The translations under genes and the position numbers were made by a program. Shown piece by piece: positions 18,492 to 60,044 of a stretch of DNA of 64,000 bases. Numbering within the stretch: the first letter of the stretch is position 1; the number at the start of each line of letters is the position of its first letter. The notes below the pieces were generated by a model. That model did not search any database. It saw only the letters and a list, made by a program, of their open reading frames with translations, and was not told where the DNA came from. The stretch comes from Protoeuglena noctilucae (lineage: Eukaryota): contig OY253671.1 in assembly GCA_958009085.1 (NCBI GenBank), positions 1,426,001 to 1,490,000 on the forward strand, written 5' to 3'.

Positions 18492-20067
18492 TCACATGTT
18501 GGCCTCTGCCGGGGTCTTTGTGTCAAGAGCGAGCGCATGGATGGACCCCCGCATCTCCTCCGCTAGCGCGGCGTAGATCATCCTGTGGCGCTGCACCATG
18601 GTCTTGGACTCAAACGCCGGCGACACGACCGTCAGGCGGAAGTGTGTCTCCGTGCCAGCGCCTGCCTTCCCGAGCCCTTGCATCATGTGCACGTGTCCCG
18701 CGTGCTTATCCGACTCGTCCACGATGTCGAGCCTGCAACAAAGGTAATGAAAGGGTCAGGGCGCTCAAGGAGTGGCCATGAGGAGCCACAGAGGTGCGGC
18801 GGCACATGCAGAGACGGTGGCGGCACCTAATCGGCTGCAGGGCCTCTGTGAGCTTGCGGCGGATGGCGGCCCGCACAGGCTTGTCAGAGTCCGTCGCCAC
18901 GCCGGCTGCGTTGGCGGCGGCCAGGACGTGGAACGCCATCACGCGCGCCCCCGCGCTGGACGGACACCCGGGTCCGCTCGACTCCTCCTGGCCAACATCT
19001 CCATCCTGCGTTGGCGACAGACGTCGTGCCGTGGGAACGAGCCGTGCGGCGTCCCTTCTGTGGCCACCCATCGATGCGAGCCCCGTCTCGCCTGTTTGCT
19101 TTGCTGGACGAGCAGCTCCAGGGACTTGCGCTGCATGAGCTTGAACATGTTTAGGAAGCCGTTGTTGCGCGAGGGAGTCAGCGCCTGCGTCAGCCCCAGC
19201 ATGTCGATGAAGGACGGGTCGATCCGCACGATCTCCTCCGGCGTGCACCCACTGAGGCCGTTGACCAGCAAAGCCGCAAGGCCTTTCGTGAGCTGCGAGT
19301 CCGAGTCGGCTGCCCACTGCACGCGGCCATCCGCGTCCACCCGTGGCACCACCCACACCTGGGACACACACCCCTGCACCTTGTTCTGCGCGTGTAGGGA
19401 TGGGGGCAGGGGGTTGCCGGATGACGACGAGATCGAGAAGAGGGAGGCGATATCGATGAATCAGCAGAGAGGCTAGCCAGGTGGCGATAGGGCTGTCCAG
19501 ACGCAGCGAGGCTCAGCTCACCTCGGGGATGTGATCCTCCGGGGGCAGCGGCGCCAGCTTCGTGGCGAAGAAAAGCAACTGCTTGTACCGGGCCATGGGA
19601 TCAGGGACCATCTGGAAAGCACCCACGATTTTCTGGAGCGACGGCGGGAGACTCGCGACGTCCTGCGCCGCCGCGCACACCACGGGTAGCTGCAGAGACG
19701 GCAAGGGAGGAGCTAGCTGGCATGATAACGGCGCCGAGCGTCGTCATCGCATAAAACGATTCCATATAAAGCGAAACGGCTGATTTTTCGCGATGTATCA
19801 TCCCTGACGAGTGCAGGACGACCCCAGCGATGGACGCACAGCGGCACGGGCCTATCGAGGCTGGATTGTTCACACCTTGCGGGTCGCGGGAGGATGTAAA
19901 GCCACCCCGATGCTCGGAGAGCTGGAAACTCTCGCGCCGCGCCCCCAGCTCGATCCGCAAGCTGCCGCGGGGGCCCTCCACGTCCGGCCGGCCATCGGGT
20001 CGCGCGCAGCCGCGCAAACAGCACGCGGCCGCGCCGAGAAGCACGTGTGCTGCGTCGCGAGGGCCAT
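18492..20067 (-). CDS. SUFE1: SufE1: plastid Fe-S assembly SufE domain plus C-terminal BolA domain
   Basis: Transit peptide MALATQHTCFSARPRAV; SufE motifs VPDPMARYKQLLFFA, NKVQGCVSQVWV, DSDSQLTKGLAALL, LTPSRNNGFLNM; BolA motifs DESDKHAGH...ETHFRLTVVSPAFE...VQRHRMIY...IHALALDTKTP; 5 exons. Confidence 0.93.
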
Positions 20068-22148: not shown

Positions 22149-24319
<2,171 letters not shown>

Positions 24320-37223: not shown

Positions 37224-37677
37224 TCAGGGCTTGGGCGGCTCCTGCACCTTCTCATCAAACTTGCCCGACGCCTGGCGGCTGCCGTCGATGCCACTCGCCC
37301 GGCGAAGAAGCTCCGCCGTGCTCGGCGCCTGGGAGGCGCGCCAGGGAGCGAAGGGTCCATCACGCATTCCAGGGTGCCCTGACCGATTCGATAGGCCCAC
37401 CGACACCCCCGGTCACCTTGATCGGAGCGCGGCGGTTGTCCGGCACGGGCAGGAGATCCTCCAGCGGCTCAGCCTTGTTCGCGGCCTTTCTCCTGCGCGG
37501 GCGGGAGCTTGGCGAGGGCATCCCGCAGTGCGGTGGTTGCCGAGCAGCGCCGCGCTCGTCGACCCCGCGCCGCCAGCGGCTGGCAGAGTGCAATGCGAAG
37601 CTTCACCTGAACGACGCGGAGAAGTCCTTCCAATGCGCACGCTCGTCTTCGCCCAATGGCTTCACCGCCTTGGACAT
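37224..37677 (-). CDS. 83-aa, three-exon ORF immediately upstream of the STE20 kinase (uORF, first cistron, or frameshifted kinase N-terminus)
   Basis: Exons 37677-37607, 37492-37417, 37328-37224 with canonical GT-AG introns in frame: MSKAVKPLGEDERAHWKDFSASFRRKAANKAEPLEDLLPVPDNRRAPIKAPSTAELLRRASGIDGSRQASGKFDEKVQEPPKP*. Junction reads CCC TGA GC ATG. Confidence 0.6.
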
Positions 37678-38104
37678 GGTCGGGCTGTGTCGGGAATTCC
37701 CAGGGCCCTAGGGGTCCGCGCCCGGTCACGAGCCACGGACTGGATCCAAGGATAGCGCAGGATCCACGGCGAGCGATGAGGCGACGTCCCTGAGGCAGCA
37801 CGTGCTGGAGCGCGCTGTATCGCGAAAGAAGCGCGAAAAGGCACTTGAGGGCGCTCGTGCGGATCGCGGAGAACGAGTGAGGCCACAGGGGGCAATCTGG
37901 GGCGGAAGAAGGGACCGGTGTTTCTGTCGGTCTGACTGACGAGACCCCGATCTCGGAAGCGCCCCGCGAGTTTTGAGCAGTTCCGTTGCGACGTTTTCTC
38001 TGCCGTCGATCGCACCCGCGCCCCATCTGCCCGCATCTCCCTCGGCGCTTTCGGACAGCTGATCCGAGGCCGCTCGCGAGCGTGCGGGACTGAGGACCCC
38101 TGGC

Positions 38105-39946
38105 ATGGACAACAGCAGGTACATGCTCGCTGGGCTGCAAGGCGAGACTGTCGTGCGCTTGCCCGGGGAGCTGGACGGCAACGCCTTCTCCATCGACCGG
38201 CTCGTTGGCTGTGTCGTGCACATACTGGACCACACTGCGCAAGTCCAGGTGTGTTTGGACCCTTTCCCTCTGCGGAGCCGCTGGCGGGGGCCCGCACCCC
38301 CGTCGCGCGCCCGCATCGCGCGTCCCCGGGGCAGACTTGTTCCCACGCGGCCCCGCGCGCGACGCCGCGCCTTTTCGCGGACCTTTCCACTCTCGCGGAC
38401 GCTTTGGTCCTCCCCGAACGCTGATGCGTGGCGCGGATGCCGAGTTTGGAGCTCCTGGGGTCCGGACGTGGTCCGGACCGGGGGGTGCCGTGGCTTGGGC
38501 GCGGATCCCTTTCCCGGGCCTCCCGGCAGTCCCGTTGTGGTTGAGAGGATCGCATGTGCCGTGGATCCACTGCAGCCGGGCCCAGGGGCGTTCACAAACG
38601 CCGGATGCCCTCCCGTCCCGCCCCCAGATAGACGACTGTGAGGACTGCACCTTCGTCATCGGGCCCGTGGCTGGACCGGTCTTCTTTCGCGACTGCAAGA
38701 ACTGCACCGTCTCGCTGGCGTGTCACCAGCTAAGGACCCGGGACTGCCAGGTGCGGGGCGGCCCCGCGGCATGCGCCTGGGATGGGCGTGTGATGTGCCA
38801 TGTGCCCCTGCACCTCTGTCTTCGCAGGACATCGTCTTTAACGTCTACTGCGCCTCCCACCCGTCGATCGAGGACTCGAAGCGCCTCACCTTCCGGCCCT
38901 TCAACGTCGCGTACCCCCACCTGAGCGCGCACTTCGCCTCGGCTGGCCTGGACCCCCTCACCAACACCTGGGACACGGTCCACGACTACAACGCCGAGGA
39001 CCCCGGCGCCGAGGACAACTTCCGCGTGGAGGTCCCCGACGTTCTGACATACCAGGAGCTCCCCCTCGACGGGTTAGGGCCCTGCGAGAACCCCGTGCTG
39101 GGACCCTCGGGAGAGCGGTACGCACCGGCAGCCATGGACGGCTTCGAGCAGGACGACCAGTTCCAGGGGAACTTCGACGGCGCCCAGAACGAGGGCGACT
39201 TCGGCGGCTTCGGGGAGGAGGCGGAGGCGGGCTTTGGCCAGGAGGAGGGCTTCGGGCAGGAGGGGGACGCGGACGCCGGCATGGAGGCCCAGGGCGGCGA
39301 CGCGATCGCGCACGGCGATGCCACGGACAACGGCTTCGACGACGGGGCCGCGCATGAGGAGACTAACGGCCCCGTGGCGGTGCCCCCGGCCCAGGCCACG
39401 TTCGCGCCCGCCCCGCCCGACTTCATGAGGGAGCTCGAGGCGCAGGAGCGCGAGCGCAAGCTGCAGCACATCGAGGAGGAGAAGAAGCAGCGCGAGGCGG
39501 TGAGGAGCCGGCCGCATGGTGGATGCTGCAAAGATGATGCGGTGTGGGCACGTCGCGCTCACCGCTCCCCGCGCTTCGTCGCCCCAGATCCGCGCGCAGG
39601 GCAAGGAGTGGCTGCAGCGCTTCCAGAACGAGCGGACGGCGACCCTCGAGGCCCGCAAGAAGGCCAACCGCGAGCAGATGGCCACGGAGGAGCGGATGAA
39701 CGAGCAGTTACAGGAGGCGAGGGGCGCCGCGCCCGCCTCGCCGGCCGCCAGCGCACCGGCTCGTCGTTCCCGCCCTGATGACATGCGAAACGAGCTGTTA
39801 TAATTTTTATGCAGGGCGACAACTTCTGGGAGGGCGTGACGACCATGGTGGCCAAGCAGAACCCGACGTCGGTGAACGGCGTCGACGTCAGCCGCATGAA
39901 GGGCCTCCTCGTCACCGCCAAGACGGTCAACATCCCCGTTCAGTAA
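38105..39946 (+). CDS. RP2/TBCC (C-CAP/cofactor C) domain fused to a clathrin light chain-like C-terminus
   Basis: Exons 38105-38248, 38628-38750, 38828-39499, 39588-39716, 39815-39946. RP2-like VVRLPGELDGNAFSID, IDDCEDCTFVIGP..GPVFFRDC.NC..SLACHQLRTRDC, NTWDTVHDYN; acidic linker; CLC-like EWLQRFQNER...EARKKANRE, NFWEGVTTMV, DVSRMKGLL..AK. Confidence 0.82.
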
Positions 39947-40157
39947 GCGGTTTACTCGCGAGGAGTACTGCCCCGTCTTGCACGCACGGTCTGTCTGGCA
40001 GCCCTGGCTCGCTTTGAAGGAGCATCGTTGTCGCGAGGAACCGTCACTGCACCTCTCACAGCGCATTTTCTGGCGCGCCAGTGCCCGTGACCGAGGAAAG
40101 CAGTGACTCAGCAACAAGCGCGGCGACCCAGCTCCACCACCCGCGCTGCTGGCCCGC

Positions 40158-43100
40158 ATGACGGGCCGGGGGACGCGTCGGCGGCTTTTCAGCTCGGCCG
40201 CGCGGCAGTTCCTCGCACTCGGCAAGAAGCATGTCCTCGTTCGCTGCCGGGCGTGGCCGCTGCTGGTCCTGCAGCTGGGGCAGGTGCGAGGGGCCTTAAT
40301 TTCAGCGCCGATGCGATGCTTATGTCTGGCGTGCATTCCTTCGCGAAGCTGCAGAAGCACGCGTAGCAGCCTGCGGAAGCCCGGAGGACTGTTTGAGGGG
40401 CTCAAGGGTGCAGCTGCACTCTGCAATTCCCCTGCGGCGCGCGGTGCGACGACGTGCTTTGCGGATGTGCGCAGATCGTCATCTTCATGTTCCTTATTTG
40501 GCTCGTCGGGCGCGCGGTCCAGCTGTCGGCGGAATACACGGCGGCAAACGATGACGTCAAGGCGCCTCGCCTGGACGCCGTCAGCAGCATCCCGAGCTGC
40601 TCTGCCAACATCTTTCTTCGAGATGGCTGCTACGATTTCGTCTACACGCCCACCGGCGACCCCATCGTGGAGCAGGTGGTCGCGTCCATGCGCCTCAACA
40701 ACCCAGGCCGCATCATCCCACCAGAGAGGGTCAAGGGCTTCCCAACCTTTCTGGACGCCGACCAGTGGCTCTTCCAGAACTGGGGACTGACCCCAGCCGC
40801 AGTGCACTTCTCCACTCCCGGCACGCCATCGCAGCCCACGACCACCCCCCTCGACGTCGGCTACACCCTTCAGACAAACAGCACGGTCAAGTACTTCAAG
40901 GGCAACTTCGAGCACCCCAACAAGGCCGCCCAGATTCCCCTCCAAGTCGCCGTGGAGCGGGTGCGTGTGCGCACGGGGGGCCATGCTGGTGTATACATGA
41001 GCGTCGTCCATCCCGTGTCCTCGCCTGTGCTGTGCAGGAGCTCTTCCGGCTCATGGCGCCAGGCGGCCAGCTGGGGGCATGGGACGTGGGCCTTATGTCC
41101 TTCGCGCACCCGCCTTATGTCCTTCGCGCACCCCCCGGCCGAGGCTGTTGCTGTGATCGGGTCAACAGCCCCCACGTTCGTCTTTGCCGCGGCCGTATTC
41201 AGCATGGTGGTCGCCATGCACGGGGTCCTCGTCGAGAAGGAGTGCGGCATCCGGTCCATCATGCAGCTCATGGGCTTGGGCGACTCCCCCTATTGGCTCT
41301 CGTGGTGGCTGGCCGAGGGCCTCTGGGCCCTGTACAACGCCGCCGCCGTCATGGCGCTCGGTCACGCCTTCCGCTTCCAGCTCGTCGTCAACAACTCCTT
41401 CGCCCTCGTCTTCTGCCTCGTCTTCCTCGCCTTCCTCTCCGTCACCTCCTTCGGGCAAGTGCCGCACTGACCCAGCAATCTGTCTCTCGTGAGATGCCAC
41501 TTCGTCTAATGTCACTCAGGCAACCTCCCTCGTCTCTGCTCCCGCAGCTTCCTGCTCACGAGCCTGATGAGGCGCCCCAGCGCCACCGTGGGCTGGGTCG
41601 TATACTTCATCGGGTGGCTCATGTCTCTCGTCGTGCTGTTAGGCTTCCCTTACGACCCCAAGTTCCACCCTGGCTGGAGGGCCCTCTTCGACCTATTCCC
41701 TTGGAACGTCCTCACCAAAGCTTTCCAGGACCTGGACCTTGCGGCTCAGCAGATCGGGGAAGGGGGGCTCACGTGGAAGGACCGGTCAGTGCGGCTGCCT
41801 GCGACATGAGCCAACGCAAAAACGAGCGCAGAAGAGGTGGCGATGACAACGCAGGCGCTTCCCTCGATCGCAGGTTCAACTACTGCGTGAAAAAGTATGA
41901 GCCAGGGCAGGCGCTGACCCAGCTGGCAAACTGCTCTACGCCCGTGGGCACCTGCATCCAGATCCTGGCGCTCCAAATTCTGGTGTACCTGAGCTTGCAG
42001 GTGAACAGCCACCACGGACCGCAACCGTGTGACGCAGATACCCTGCACGCTGCTCACCAGAGCACACCCGTAATGCATGTAGACTTCGTGACCAGCAGGT
42101 GTACTTGGACAACGTCCTGCCCACGTCTCTGGGCGCCCGGCGACCTCTCTGGTACCCCCTCGACCCGACCTACTGGTTCCCCTGCCTGGCGAGGAGGACC
42201 GTGCGGCATGCGAGGGCGGCACTCGACGCTGCCAAGAAGTCAGCAGGCCCCGAGGACGCGACCCTCGCTGAAGGTGACGGTGCAAGTCTTGGGCATCAGC
42301 GTGGCGCTTACGGTGCAGGGGCAGCAGGAGGGGGCGCACCCTGTACCATCACCAGAACCGACGCTCCCCTGCGCAGAGAGGGCTGAGGTCATCCGTCGCT
42401 GCGAGCGCTTCGTCCAAGGCGGCTCGAGCGCGGCCCTCCTGCCGGTCGAGCTCTTTGGTCTCAGCAAGTCCTTCCGAACCGGGCTCTTTGGCAAACCCAG
42501 GGACGCCGTCAGGGACGTGTGGTTTGGAATCAGAGAAGGCACCTGCCTGTGCCTGCTGGGGCCCAACGGGGCGGGCAAATCCAGCACGATCAACGCCCTC
42601 GTAGGTGGGTGGGCACGGTGCCATTGCCATTGCCCTTAGGCAAAGCGCTCCTCTCGCACTGTCACCGTCGAGTCCCTCAAGCCCCCCATGCGCAGGTGAC
42701 TCTCCCGTGACGCGAGGCGAGGTGCTGGTGAACGGGCACAGCATCCGGCAGCAGGGGGCGCGCGACCGTGCCCGGGCGTGCATCGGCGTCTGCCCTCAAT
42801 TCGACGTTCTGCTGGGCCAGCTCACCGCCCGCGAGCACCTGCACCTGTTCGGGGCCATCCGCGGGCTCCCGGCAAAGAAGCTCCGCGCCGAGGCCCAGAG
42901 GGTACGAATCGTGTCGCGCGCCTGTCTCACGCCTGCTGCGGTGCCACCGTGACTGTGAATGCCTGGGTGCAGTGAGCGTGACCTGCCTGACGACCCTCGC
43001 AGCTCCTGGACGCCGTGCATCTCACGGGCGCTGCCGACCGGCTCTGCGAGGGCTACTCGGGCGGCATGAAGCGCCGGCTCAGCGTGGCGGCCGCCCTCGT

Positions 43101-47381: not shown

Positions 47382-48813
47382 TCAGTGCCGGGGGTCAGCT
47401 GCGTGGTTGCCGCCCGCCTCCCTCAGCGCCGCTAGCTCCTCCTCCAGCTTGCCCTCTTCTCCCTCCATGAACTGCGCGCAAGGACAAACCACGCCTCTTC
47501 CCTATACCATTGCCACCCTTGCCACCCAGGCCCCGCGTTGCCACCCACGCCTTGCTTTGCCCTTGCCTGGTAAGGGGAGAAGTCCTTTCCGGGGAAGCTG
47601 CCCTCGCGGACCTCGTCCCGGTACGCCACGAGGGCGTCGTGGATGTGGCGGCCCACCTCCCCGAACTGCTTGCAGAACTTGGGGGTCACCTTGGCGTGGT
47701 GCGGGTGCTGCATCATGCCCAGCAAGTCGTGGTAGACGAGGACCTGGCCGCTCGTGAGGCCCCCCGCGCCGATGCCGATCGTGGGGATGCCCACTGCACG
47801 TGTCACCGCCCCCCCCACCGCCTCAGGCACGCACTCAAGGACCAAGGCAAAGCACCCGGCACGCTCCAGGGCCTGGGCCTCCCGCACCACCGCCGCGGCC
47901 TCCTCGGCCGTGCGGGCCACGGGCCGGAACCCCCCCAGGACGCTGATGGACTGGGGCATGAGGCCCACGTGGCCCATGACGGCCACCCCCGCGTCGACAA
48001 TGGCGCGGGCGGCTGCGACACGCAAGGGGCTCCCGCCCTCGAGCTTCACGGCGTCCACGCCCCCCTCCTTGACGAGGCGGATGGCTGACGCCACCGCCTG
48101 CTGCGGCGACACCTCGTAGGACCCGAAGGGTAGGTCACCGACCACGAAGGGTCGGGTCACGCCGCGCGTCACAGCTCGGCAGTGCAGCAGCATGTCCTCC
48201 ATCGTCACGGGCTGCGTCGTGTCGTGCCCGTGCACCACCATCCCCACCGAGTCGCCCACCAGCACGATGTCGATGCCCGCATGGTCCACGTGCACGGCCG
48301 AGGGGTAGTCGTACGCCGTCACCATGGTCAGCTTCTCACCCCTCCTGCGCGGGGAAGAAGCCGTGCTTTTGCCGAAGCGGACGCGGCCTCCCGAGCGCCA
48401 TCGCGACGAGTGCTCGCCTGTAGGCCGCGCCCAACGTGCGCAGGGTCACGCGTTTGGGGACGTCCCTCTCTCGAGGACCCGTATAAATGACGGACTCTGG
48501 CCGGTTCGAGAAGCACTTGAAGCGTTCATTTGCATCACTTGCATTCCAGGGGCTCCGCTCGCGGGGAGCGGCGGCGGAAGGGAGCAGACGGAGAGTCAGC
48601 CTGCGATTGCACCTCAGCGGACGCGTATCGTCGGGCCACGCGGTGCGAATGGTAAGCTTACAAGGCTCACGGCATATCTCGAACGTGGCGGGCCTCGTCA
48701 TGCGAGCATGACGCCGGGGGCACTCACGTGCTTCGGGCAAGCACACACGCAGATCCCAGGGCCGCTCGGATGCACCCGCCCCCCCGGCGCATGGGCAGCA
48801 CGGACACTGCCAT
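47382..48813 (-). CDS. PANB: 3-methyl-2-oxobutanoate (ketopantoate) hydroxymethyltransferase, organelle-targeted
   Basis: Presequence exon [13 protein letters not shown]...; [12 protein letters not shown]...[53 protein letters not shown]...[19 protein letters not shown]. Confidence 0.95.
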
Positions 48814-55442: not shown

Positions 55443-58400
55443 CTAACTTTCCGCGAGGGTCGCCTGGCACAACGCCGCGCGCATCCCCTCCAGCCCGCAC
55501 CAGAAGAGGTCAGCGGCCGCGGGCACCCCCACCCGCTCGCAGTACCGGCGGAACGCCGTCCGCGCGTCCAGCTCCCGCCTGACCTCCGCAGCCGCCTCCT
55601 CCGCGCCGCGCATCGCCGCGTAGAAGTCTCGCAGCGACGCCAGGACCTGAGAGCACAGCCACAGGCACCGCCGTGACACCTCTGCCGCGCTGGTGTGATG
55701 GCCAGCTGTGCCACCCCCTGGAAATAGGCGTGGCGCTCGCCTGCTGGGCGTGCATGGGCCTCGGGTCCAAAGAACGACGAACCCACGCAGAGAGGTTGGC
55801 ACGGTTCGGCTCCGCCATGAACCGGGCATCCAGGAGCACCACCGCACCGTAGTCGTGCTCGTGGCGCACGCACCGCCCCAGGCACTGGTTCAAAGCCCTG
55901 CGAACGCCGTGCACAGCCCCGGCTCCCGACAGCGCCGCAGCCCAGGGGCATGGTATGCCAAGGCAGTCCCTCCACTCACCGGAAGGCCTGCAGAGTGTAC
56001 CACTGCTCGCCGGTGGGCAGAGCGGGGTAGGCGCCGTTGTACTGCTTCTTCATCACGACCTTCAGGTCCCGGGCGCTGGGGTATGGAATGCCAACCATCA
56101 CGGCCAGGCGGCACTCGTGGTCGCGGAAGTCAATGCCCTCTGCCAGGGCAAGAGAGGGGTACCATCCCTCACATACCGGGGCGTTTCATCGGCGCTGGCA
56201 CCGGCCGCGCGCTTGGCGCCCTCACCTGACACCTTGCCTCTGGCCGGCACCAGCAGCAGCGCCTTGCGCCCGCGGCTCAGCGCCGCGCGCATGGTCGCCA
56301 CCAGTGCCTCCCCGGTCTGCTCCCGCGTCTCCTCCCCTACCCACAGGCCATCCCCCATGCGCGCCAGGGCGCCCGAGTCCCTCAGCCGCTTCATGGCCTG
56401 CCCCAGGACACTGTAGCTGGGGCAGAAGACGAGCGCCCCCGAGGCAGGGGGCAGGGCGTCCACGGCAGACACCAGGAAGGCCGCCAGGGCGTCGTACTGC
56501 GCCTGGCTGCTCCGGCGGAAGGTCCACTCAAAGCGCTCGCCCCCGAGGGCCCAGGGCACCGTGGCTGCCCGAACGTGGTCCGCCGACACCACGTGCTGGC
56601 CGTCGAGCCTGATGGGGAACCTGGCCCCCAGCTCAGCCTCGAAGGACTCCATGGGGCTCAGGGTCCCGGACGCGAGCACCACCGCATGGGCGACGTCAGA
56701 GATGGGGCGGAAGACCACTCCGGGCCATAGACACCACAGGCAGAACTGCCACTCTTTCTTCCCGGTATCGAACTGCGAACATGGTCACAGCGTATGCCAC
56801 GTGGGCTGCGGTGGGATGCACCTGCACCCTCACCCTCCGCCCAAGGCCACTCGCCTGCAGCGCGGCGCAGTAGTGCCGCGCGTTGTTCTCGCCCACTTGG
56901 CCCCCCTTCTTGCCCTCCCCGAGCCCCCCGAGCACGAGGGTCAGGCACTCCACGAAGGCTTTGCATGTCGCCAGCAACTGCGCACCGTACTGGTGGGGTT
57001 GCGTCACAACACGGCTCCAGAAGCTGTGCGAAGCATCGGCCAGCGCCATCGCACCCACCTCCGCTCCAGGGACCCGAGGCAACCCCTCTTGCTCCTCGCC
57101 AGCGTCCCCGCGGCCCCGCCGCCCCTTGCGCTTGCGGCCTCGCTTGCCGGCGCCGCGGGCCTGCAGCACCGGGCTGTCACGCGCCGTGTCGAGTGCCGCA
57201 GAGAAGGATGCCAGGTTGCTGAAACCCATGGCAAGGAGCTCTTCGAGCAGCCCGGCGAGCCCGATGGGCCTGCATTGGCAGGTGAGGGAGGGGCACAGGT
57301 CAAGATGAGAGGGGTTGCAGGAACGAGCGTCGGCACAGGCGTGGCGGGCGTCACCAGAGGCGGAACGCCTTGTCCTCGGGCAGCTGCTGGCGCCGCAGGT
57401 CATCCACCGCTTCGCGCAGGAAACGACACAGGGCCGTGAACGCCTCGCGCAAGGGCCCGAAGACCACCGCGTCCACGTGGGTGCATGCGTCGTCCAGGAC
57501 CTGTGCAAAGGGAAGGGGCCTCGCAGAGTCAGGCCTCACCGACCGTGTGAGCGCGAGCTGTCGCAAGCAGCCCCGGTGTGCGCGAGCGGCAGCGCCCTCG
57601 CCCTGGTGGCGGCCTCCAGGGCCGGCAGTCCCGACTCGAAGCTCCCCGCCTCCGTGCAGGCGTTCTCGATGTTGTGGGCCTCATCCAGCAGCACCACCGC
57701 GCCCGCCAGCTCCACGCCCATGGCGGCCCGCACCCCGGGGTCAATTATGTAGTTGTACGGGCACATGACGAGGTCGGCGCTCTGCGCCATGGACCGCGCG
57801 GCGAAGTAGGGGCAGCCCCCGTGCTCCCGCCCCGCCGCCGCCAGCTCCTCGACGTCCAGGATGTCCCCGCGGACGTAGTTGGCCAGGTCCTCGGCCCGGG
57901 GGTAGTGCTCGCAGGCCACGGGGTCGGACGCCAGGCGCTTGGTGCACTCCTGTTCCCGGCCGGCCGAGGCGGACACCACCTGGTGGATGCAGTAGTGCTG
58001 CCGCGACGCCAGCACCACCGTCGACGGGGCGTAGGGCGTCCTCTTGAGCTCGGCGATGACCTGGGCGACCTGAGCATGCGTCCGTGATGCGTATATGATC
58101 TGCGGACGCTTCTTGGCAGCCTTGGCGCCCTGCTTTTCCGTCGTCCCTGCCGGCTCAGGGTCCGCCGCGAAGCCCCCAGGCAGTGCGGTGTCCTCGCTGC
58201 CCGCCGCGGCTGCTGGCTGCTGCTTGGCTAGGACGATGCCCTCTGCCTTGACATGCTCCTGCCAGGCGAGCGCGGCCGTCAGCAGCGCCAGTGTCTGCAT
58301 CGCAGGGGACGTGAAGCGTGAAGCGAGTGGGCTGGACGAAGCGACGTGCGCGGGATGCGAGGCGCCATCTCACCTTCCCGCACCCGGTAGGAGCGGACAG

Positions 58401-59051: not shown

Positions 59052-60044
59052 ATGAAGGCGTCGACGGGAGGCCTTCCGGCCTGGGCAGTCGTGCGCCTGC
59101 ACGCGGCAGGCTACGCGGTGCTCTTCGCTGCCTTCTTGGTCGCCGCGTGGTCCTTCGTCGCCGACCAAACCGTGGTGCAGCCGGATGGCGCTGCCACACT
59201 GCAAACGCCGCGTGCGCAAGCGACCTCGATCCCTGTCAACGTTGCCGGAGTCGGTGACCCAGCTGGCATCGACCCAGGCAGCAAGGAGGCCAGGTGAGCT
59301 TCCGTGAACAACCGTGCGCCAGGGTCGAGCGCTCCTACGGGCGCTCTTGATCCGTGGCCGGTGAGGTGCTCTCAGGGCACGGGGCGTGTACTCGTTCGTC
59401 GTCAAGGACGTGGACGGTGCCGTCGTGGGCTTGAGCCAATACGCGGGGCTCGTGTCTGTCGTCGTCAACACCGCGTCCGAGTGCGGCTACACGGCGGAGA
59501 ACTTGGGCGGGCTGCAGCGGCTGTACGAGCAGTTCCACAGCCGCGGGTTCACGGTTCTTGCCTTCCCCAGCAACGACTTCCAGCAAGAGTCCCTGGATGG
59601 CGCGGAGCTCCGGCGGGTCTACCGGTGACGAGCAGCATGTGGATGCATGCGTTGTTCGTGCCAGCTGAGCTTGTTTCTCGTTATTCCGCAGTTTCGACCT
59701 TCTCTATCTGCCCTTCCAGGGATGTCTACGGCGTCACGTTCCACATCTTCGAGAAGACGCACGTGGCTGGGCCGGAAGCCCATCCCCTCTTCCGGTACAT
59801 CTCACAGGCCTTGCCGCCCGAGTACGGCAAGGGGCTAAGTGAGCGTGGCAGCACGCTGGGCGCCTGTCCTCAACGTTAGGCTGCCAGCAACCCTGTGGGG
59901 CCGCCGTCGACACGTGCAGAGCCTTCCTGGAACTTCTACAAGGCGATCGTCGACCGCAACGGCCGCCCCGTCGCACGACTGGACATGCCCTTGCAAGAGG
60001 CGAAGCTTCGAGCGCTGATCGAGCCTCTCCTGGCGCAGGGGTAG
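59052..60044 (+). CDS. GPX: Cys-type glutathione peroxidase-like protein with N-terminal hydrophobic anchor, 4 exons
   Basis: AVLFAAFLVAAWSFV TM segment; VVNTASECGYT (TGC, not TGA), VLAFPSNDFQQE, AHPLFRYI, PSWNFYKAIVDRNG. Confidence 0.88.

Follow-up and report, generated by a model that had tools for sequence, protein, structure and literature searches.

Does one gene encode both an RP2-type GTPase-activating protein (GAP) domain and a clathrin light chain, or have two neighbouring genes been read as one? The question is raised by positions 38105-39946 on the forward strand of a 64,000-nucleotide stretch of the genome of the alga Protoeuglena noctilucae (GenBank assembly GCA_958009085.1, contig OY253671.1, positions 1,426,001 to 1,490,000), the whole of which is referred to here as the window. 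An initial annotation, made from the DNA alone, had described at this position an RP2/TBCC-type domain fused to a clathrin light chain. We consider, with a probability of roughly 0.6, that the alga has here its own representative of a conserved protein family whose members carry an RP2-type GAP domain N-terminal to a clathrin light chain, with an acidic and probably disordered linker between the two.

Gene structure and transcript support

The gene has five exons (38105-38248, 38628-38750, 38828-39499, 39588-39716 and 39815-39943), the spliced translation of which gives a protein of 399 amino acids from 399 codons. It starts at the ATG at 38105, which is the first ATG of the mRNA, and stops at the TAA at 39944-39946. 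Introns 1-3 are of the GT-AG type, while the last (39717-39814) is GC-AG. The motifs on which the fusion was originally proposed are all present in the spliced translation where they had been placed, with CHQLRTRDC in exon 2, EWLQRFQNER...ARKKANRE in exon 4 and NFWEGVTTMV...DVSRMKGLL in exon 5, and the bounds given earlier for exon 3, 38828-39499, are exact. The features of the locus, all on the forward strand, are as follows.

37989-38104, +, 5′ untranslated region, ATG-free before 38105; RNA contigs reach back to 37989-38004, which as contigs do not prove the start
38105-38248, +, exon 1 in its long form, codons 1-48, with the RP2-specific N-terminal strands (…ETVVRLPG…); XRP2 match, RNA joint 38248 to 38628
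38119-38248, +, part of exon 1, 130 nucleotides, that is alternatively removed; donor CAG/GTACAT at 38118/38119, RNA joint 38118 to 38628
38249-38627, +, intron 1, 379 nucleotides, GT-AG; RNA joint
38628-38750, +, exon 2, codons 49-89, turns of the beta-helix and the GAP motif; TBCC and XRP2 matches
38751-38827, +, intron 2, 77 nucleotides, GT-AG; RNA joint in four of four runs, retained in some RNA
38828-39133, +, first part of exon 3, codons 90-191, end of the RP2 beta-helix and the RP2 segment that follows it, up to ...ENPV...; TBCC and XRP2 matches
39134-39136, +, internal ATG (Met192) in the context GCC ATG G; the next AUG in any frame after the five-codon reading frame of the mRNA with short exon 1
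39134-39415, +, acidic linker, residues 192 to about 285-290; from composition and predicted disorder
39416-39499, +, last part of exon 3, start of the long light-chain helix; from predicted structure and Pfam
39500-39587, +, intron 3, 88 nucleotides, GT-AG; RNA joint in three of four runs
39588-39716, +, exon 4, codons 314-356, light-chain central helix with KKANRE; from Pfam and the family alignment
39717-39814, +, intron 4, 98 nucleotides, GC-AG; RNA joint in four of four runs, and no GT-AG reading fits
39815-39946, +, exon 5, codons 357-399 and the TAA, with the light-chain C-terminal W...DVSRMK motifs
39947-40029, +, 3′ untranslated region; poly(A) loose end at 40029 in run X10, AAAAAAAA

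Of the public runs listed, 17 contain at least part of the stretch, 8 of them being recorded as RNA. Four of the metatranscriptome runs, X8, X10 and X11 from one study (P3) and X13 from another (P4), supplied the contigs that were aligned to the window, all at 99% identity or above. Every splice junction of the 399-codon model is seen in this RNA. The joints 38750 to 38828 and 39716 to 39815 are present in all four runs, and those from 39499 to 39588 and from 38248 to 38628 in three, the shorter side of the last being 31 letters. The joint of the GC-AG intron can slide by three places, and only the GC..AG reading has an AG acceptor. A repeat search found no second copy of any of the four introns within the window.

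Splicing of exons 3, 4 and 5 is the same in a database protein of 329 amino acids (P0001, from JGI), which is represented by 4 contigs, the longest of 1485 nucleotides. Intron 2 (38751-38827) is retained in some of the RNA, one X8 contig (record 16) being unspliced over 38722-38854, and P0001 starts at an ATG inside the retained intron. Such RNA may be pre-mRNA, or it may be a third isoform that carries half of the RP2 domain.

The join between the two halves

At a GC content of 67.6%, and with an antisense frame at this position open for 658 codons, an open frame across the join is by itself weak evidence. Chance open frames of hundreds of codons do occur here, and in DNA of such high GC content adjacent RP2 and light-chain genes could conceivably be read as one. 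We consider this extremely improbable. Single contigs, of 1150 nucleotides in X10 and of 1136 nucleotides in X11, extend without a break from exon 2 as far as the poly(A) site at about 40029, where X10 has a loose end of eight A, and the linker is free of joints and ends; one spliced RNA thus carries the RP2 end together with the linker and the light chain. The GC content at the first, second and third codon positions (GC1, GC2 and GC3) gives the linker (0.78, 0.46 and 0.96) a coding signature resembling that of the flanking RP2 part (0.65, 0.42 and 0.87) and light-chain part (0.65, 0.35 and 0.98). The same two-domain architecture is also found in dozens of distant proteins.

The join was seen again in a metagenomic relative, L001, where one uninterrupted exon (270-1332) takes in the RP2 domain from its second half onwards, the linker and the complete light chain, with no counterparts of introns 3 and 4 of the window gene. 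L001 begins at a contig end, and its exon 1, with any alternative donor, lies outside the sequence. It came from a second metagenome scan, with P0004 as the query; a first scan with P0001 returned no locus. The initial annotation had argued from exon 3 that the join does not depend on a splice prediction, and the spanning RNA contigs and the single exon of L001 bear this out. The possibility of an artefact from two neighbouring genes was therefore dropped, the spanning contigs, the coding linker, the recurrence of the architecture and the L001 exon all speaking against it. Residues G, A, D, E and F abound in the linker itself, for which disorder is predicted, with a predicted local distance difference test score (pLDDT) below 50 at residues 132-202 of P0001.

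The N-terminal domain

The Pfam TBCC family, with a cut-off of 24.8 bits, matches exon 2 at 58.3 bits (profile positions 25-65) and exon 3 at 45.7 bits (67-119), the adjoining profile positions confirming the splice between the two exons. When exon 1 was compared with all PDB sequences, both of the two matches at E up to 10 were to human XRP2 (residues 36-81, E 3.8e-6). Exon 2 matches XRP2 83-123 at E 1e-13 and TBCC chains at 6.4e-8 or worse; for the exon 3 part, with P0001 as the query, the values are 1.6e-6 for XRP2 129-188 and 4.4e-5 for TBCC. Exons 1-3 are hence colinear with human XRP2 over 36-81, 83-123 and 129-188 at a constant offset, and over residues 2-89 there are no insertions or deletions. 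A profile of 21 family members gave 227.7 bits (E 3e-66) to XRP2 and 151.9 bits to TBCC.

Three residues of the window protein, Gln82, Arg84 (codon AGG, 38733-38735, in exon 2) and Glu104, align without gaps with Gln116, Arg118 and Glu138 of XRP2, which are the catalytic arginine finger and its helpers. The AlphaFold model of one family member, P0009, has a mean pLDDT of 83.7, with the beta-helix (residues 1-170) at 94-98. It superposes on RP2 in the complex with Arl3 (3bh6_B) with a root-mean-square deviation of 0.8 Å over 153 columns, the values for TBCC entries being 2.2-2.4. An RP2-like beta-helix with an arginine finger had been proposed from the sequence, and the arginine named there is the one that aligns with Arg118.

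These comparisons identify the N-terminal domain as RP2-type rather than TBCC-type, which bears on its likely target. The fold and the arginine finger are common to TBCC, TBCC chains are the next-best matches in the PDB, and the family survives in lineages that probably lack cilia; the domain might then act on Arl2 or on tubulin as cofactor C does, and not on Arl3, linking clathrin to tubulin handling. We regard this as very unlikely given that XRP2 scores clearly above TBCC for all of the window exons and for the family profile, that exon 1 matches XRP2 only, and that the window protein has no Pfam match to the spectrin-like TBCC_N domain.

The window protein differs from animal RP2 at both ends of this domain. 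RP2 is held on membranes by N-terminal lipids, and its MGC... start is a motif for N-terminal myristoylation/palmitoylation. This start is present in both animal XRP2 rows of our alignment and in none of the 31 fusion rows, the window protein beginning with MDNS. No Pfam match was found to the nucleoside-diphosphate-kinase-like C-terminal domain, the C-terminal half matching Clathrin_lg_ch instead.

The C-terminal half

The Pfam scan proposed in the initial annotation thus placed both families above their cut-offs. For Clathrin_lg_ch, where the cut-off is 22 bits, the match on P0001 reaches 24.6 bits (E 2.8e-5), a narrow pass that covers residues 122-323 and positions 4-214 of the 222 in the profile. 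Exon 5 alone gives 13.9 bits (profile 180-214), which by itself is weak. The family profile, on the other hand, finds light chains in the PDB at E 2.7e-16 (CLC-B, 6wcj_B) and 4.1e-16 (6sct_D), and the NRE, W and D-x-S-R-M/F-K motifs are aligned throughout the family. The hidden Markov model match and the family profile uphold the identity first given to the C-terminus, and we take this half to be, on sequence grounds, a clathrin light chain.

In the model of P0001 there is a 70-residue helix at 216-285 (286-355 of the full-length protein) with pLDDT 94-98, followed by short helices at 290-297 and 312-324. Fold searches were uninformative here: the 46 Foldseek matches contained no light chain and VIA-align returned only generic coiled coils tied near Z 7, a lone long helix matching any coiled coil.

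Distribution and phylogeny of the family

A HMMER search with P0001 against 1.84 billion representatives gave 293 matches at E ≤ 1e-3. From the best 150 of the 293 we picked 48 in which the match reached the light-chain half or came in two stretches, and which are hence not a random sample. Pfam found both domains above cut-off in 30 of these, TBCC with a sub-threshold light chain in 1, TBCC only in 7, the light chain only in 9 and neither in 1. In the profile search, 45 of 90 proteins carried both precomputed Pfam families.

The green algal members include Pedinophyceae sp. YPF-701 (CAG9466289.1), Tetraselmis, Mesostigma, Bryopsis, Pycnococcus ('Xrp2 protein'), Chlamydomonas incerta (551 amino acids), C. 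schloesseri (533 amino acids), Volvox, Pleodorina, Trebouxia, Myrmecia, Apatococcus, Elliptochloris, Micractinium, Parachlorella, Picochlorum, Nannochloris and Helicosporidium. The members that are not green algae come from the oomycete Achlya (OQR84125.1), the ciliates Furgasonia and Protocruzia, Rhodelphis and the rhizarian Lapot gusevi. The survey of the architecture that had been suggested at the outset thus finds it widespread in green algae and in some other protists.

A quick maximum-likelihood tree was calculated from 33 rows, comprising 31 fusion proteins and two animal XRP2. A branch with a Shimodaira-Hasegawa-like approximate likelihood-ratio test (SH-aLRT) support of 99 separates the fusion rows from the animal ones, and the subclades match taxonomy: Trebouxiophyceae and Chlamydomonadales (99 each) and the five rows from outside the green algae (94) each form a single group. 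Such a pattern is in keeping with vertical descent and speaks against contamination of the predator transcriptomes by algal sequence; the tree indicates that the fusion family is old and vertically inherited. The window protein clusters with the Pedinophyceae and P0006 (98), its identity to any aligned member being 38% at most.

The initial annotation had treated the architecture as potentially novel. This claim is weakened: the fusion itself is no new discovery, since it is already in the databases under automatic names ('Tubulin binding cofactor C/Clathrin light chain' at JGI, 'Xrp2 protein' at NCBI, 'Clathrin light chain' in UniRef) and there is an ESM Atlas cluster of the fusion architecture with 61 members, but no paper describing an RP2-light chain fusion was found in our literature search, which lay outside supplements and subscription journals. 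In their available text, a pan-eukaryotic survey of light chains does not mention the fusion (PMC9490929) and a paper on trypanosome RP2 does not contain the word 'clathrin' (PMC3879569).

Two further observations were made among the relatives. A 708-residue protein from Elliptochloris bilobata (P0163) has protein-phosphatase-2C domains ahead of TBCC and Clathrin_lg_ch, and represents one more fusion unless its gene model is a merged one. In Tetraselmis striata there are two gene models of a stand-alone 223-residue light chain. Its C-terminal half closely resembles the light-chain part of the fusion protein of Tetraselmis, as seen on comparing P0072 with P0242. The similarity of the sequences suggests a recent split or duplication of the light-chain part of that fusion.

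Loss of the catalytic residues in one clade

Of the 33 aligned rows, 20 retain the arginine and 21 the glutamate. The 13 rows without the arginine, ten from Trebouxiophyceae, two from Tetraselmis and P0029, form one clade (99%). In most of them the arginine is replaced by glutamine, and 12 of the 13 have also lost the glutamate, such that they look like clathrin light chains with a dead GAP domain. Many chlorelloid trebouxiophytes are not known to have a flagellate stage; Tetraselmis is flagellate. In a study of the ARF family, ARL3 is among the four members that occur in step with cilia (PMC9250359). The loss of the arginine in trebouxiophytes would fit a ciliary role for the GAP site.

That the fusion outlasts the arginine suggests that the light-chain role is the indispensable one. 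Taken further, the protein might be simply the light chain of the cell, with the RP2-like domain as a structural or binding appendage without GAP activity, as might also be thought from its persistence in chlorelloid algae with no known flagellate stage. For the window protein we find this unlikely, since it matches XRP2 at all three catalytic positions without an insertion or deletion over residues 2-89, and since retention of the arginine in the other rows, which come from very distant lineages, argues for selection on the catalytic site.

An alternative 5′ splice site in exon 1

What is new at this locus is a second 5′ splice site within exon 1 of the window gene. The joint from 38118 to 38628, which uses the donor CAG/GTACAT, is present in all four runs and hence in two studies. 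Contig depth, a poor measure of abundance that cannot give isoform levels, is 12.3, 16.6, 22.5 and 6.4 for the short joint in the four runs as against 7.7, 12.1, 13 and 0 for the long joint, and the distal part of exon 1 has about one-third of the depth of the proximal part. Removal of the 130 nucleotides shifts the frame, so that the ATG at 38105 is followed by only five codons (MDNSR) before a TAG. The next ATG in any frame on this mRNA is that of Met192 at 39134 (GCCATGG), 425 nucleotides downstream, from which an open reading frame of 208 amino acids runs through the acidic stretch and the light chain. A short upstream open reading frame followed by a distance of 425 nucleotides is favourable for re-initiation.

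The alternative donor was missed in the initial annotation and could give rise to a stand-alone light chain. The gene might therefore have two products, the long exon 1 yielding the fusion and the short exon 1, through the five-codon upstream frame and re-initiation at Met192, a plain 208-residue light chain that would be the bulk light chain of the cell. We think this possible but doubtful. The short joint is deeper than the long one in each run, and Met192 lies at the start of an acidic stretch typical of light-chain N-termini. There may also be a parallel in another lineage, where a 175-residue reading frame with the light chain only (P0240) starts from an internal Met on JGI contigs of 1467 nucleotides and falls in the same 90% cluster as a 386-residue fusion (P0241); the separate Tetraselmis striata light chain, close to the corresponding half of the fusion, points the same way. 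The internal Met, however, is not conserved in the family, and the short form could be an unproductive isoform targeted for decay.

The ATG-free tract ahead of Met192 had been considered as a sign of selection, as windows of 440 nucleotides without an ATG are rare in the 64-kb stretch (11 of 2543 on the plus strand and 18 of 2543 on the minus strand). This was dropped: the RP2 region is poor in Met (8 of 30 homologues have none there), its GC3 of 0.87 makes out-of-frame ATGs rare, and stretches equally long without an ATG are nothing unusual in L001 (79 of 601 windows). The tract permits re-initiation but is no evidence for it.

Neighbouring genes

The upstream neighbour (37416-37766) is on the minus strand, the RNA joint from 37491 to 37606 reading CT..AC on the plus strand and thus as a GT-AG intron on the minus strand. 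It diverges from the fusion gene, with about 220 base pairs between the outermost RNA contigs, and none of its open reading frames that were tried belongs to a Pfam family. Other coding pieces of the window identified through Pfam are listed below.

1795-2166, +, ribosomal protein S21
18942-19460, -, SufE
22779-23138, -, protein kinase
40397-41467, +, piece of an ABC-2-type transporter, directly downstream of the fusion gene
47435-48445, -, ketopantoate hydroxymethyltransferase
57539-58369, -, DEAD_2 helicase
59365-59625, +, glutathione peroxidase

Among the neighbouring open reading frames of the window, Pfam gave none linked to clathrin or cilia, and neither an Arf-like GTPase nor a clathrin heavy chain.

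Discussion

If the gene does belong to the RP2-light chain family, as we favour, the light-chain half would be expected to bind the clathrin heavy chain as ordinary light chains do. There are three light chains per triskelion, as given in the available text of the in-situ study of Chlamydomonas clathrin (10.1101/2024.12.28.630444), and each triskelion would thus carry three GAP domains on flexible acidic tethers of about 95 residues. By analogy with RP2, these domains might switch off an Arf-like GTPase at clathrin-coated membranes, with Arl3 as the most likely target. Binding to clathrin would then take the place of the N-terminal lipid anchor of animal RP2 as the membrane address.

Several observations weigh against this reading. 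The light-chain match clears its Pfam cut-off by only 2.6 bits, where relatives reach up to 75 bits; the single window sequence finds PDB light chains only weakly (E 0.025), and a Trp in the first heavy-chain-contact motif of several relatives has no counterpart in the window protein. About 60% of the 5′ ends, by contig depth, which is a poor measure, carry the frame-breaking short exon 1, so the fusion may not be the main product of the gene. Persistence of the family in the 13-row clade without the arginine means that GAP chemistry is dispensable there, and the correlation with cilia is imperfect, because Tetraselmis is flagellate yet has no arginine.

On a broader reading, the fused protein would be RP2 in an ancient form, no younger than the common ancestor of green algae, Rhodelphis, ciliates, oomycetes and rhizarians, and would physically couple the GTPase switch of ciliary membrane traffic to clathrin coats. 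The window gene would in addition alternate between a GAP-light chain and a light chain of the plain kind according to which 5′ splice site of exon 1 is used, with the five-codon upstream frame and re-initiation at Met192. Taken as a whole we consider this improbable. RP2 is a human retinal-disease gene, and fusions that persist in very distant lineages usually mark proteins that work together. That this fusion exists in such separate groups as green algae, ciliates, oomycetes (one member), Rhodelphis and rhizarians (one member) hence suggests that clathrin-coated membranes were an ancestral site of RP2 action. The placement of RP2 at the base of the cilium and its effect on vesicle traffic are described as still debated in the available part of the trypanosome study (PMC3879569).

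The fusion also means that Chlamydomonas-type algae may have a light chain roughly double the size given in textbooks; the in-situ map of Chlamydomonas clathrin was, in the text available, interpreted with light chains of about 25 kDa (10.1101/2024.12.28.630444). More generally, the family would connect a ciliopathy GAP with clathrin, in a link that is conserved, open to experiment and so far unstudied.

Comparison with known systems

The closest known relative of the N-terminal half is human RP2/XRP2 (PDB 2bx6, and 3bh6 and 3bh7 with Arl3), with which it shares the N-terminal strand and the beta-helix, colinear over XRP2 36-188, as well as the catalytic Gln, Arg and Glu at Q116, R118 and E138. 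It differs in having no MGC start and in the replacement of the kinase-like C-terminal domain by the linker and light chain. With TBCC (PDB 2yuh and 9m1m) the beta-helix fold and the arginine-finger motif are shared, but TBCC scores below XRP2 in every comparison and its TBCC_N domain is missing from the window protein.

Canonical light chains (mammalian CLCa/CLCb, 6wcj_B and 6sct_D; plant CLC1-3) likewise have an acidic N-terminal stretch, a long central helix and the NRE/W/D-x-S-R-M-K motifs. The window protein, in contrast, has about 190 extra N-terminal residues, which form the putative GAP domain, its similarity to them as a single sequence is weak, and it does not keep the first Trp of the region that binds the heavy chain. 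Within the catalogued family of 'Clathrin light chain/Tubulin binding cofactor C domain-containing protein' it is a member with the same order of domains and the same motifs, though the window gene has its own intron pattern and the alternative exon-1 donor is known from this gene alone.

A parallel for the arrangement is found in trypanosomes. The available text on TbRP2 describes a TBCC domain combined with TOF-LisH motifs, a lineage-specific module that targets the protein in place of lipid anchors (PMC3879569). In TbRP2 the module lies at the N-terminus and serves as a tether to basal bodies, whereas that of the window protein lies at the C-terminus and would be a clathrin subunit. The TOF-LisH arrangement means that a swappable targeting module on an RP2 core has a precedent.

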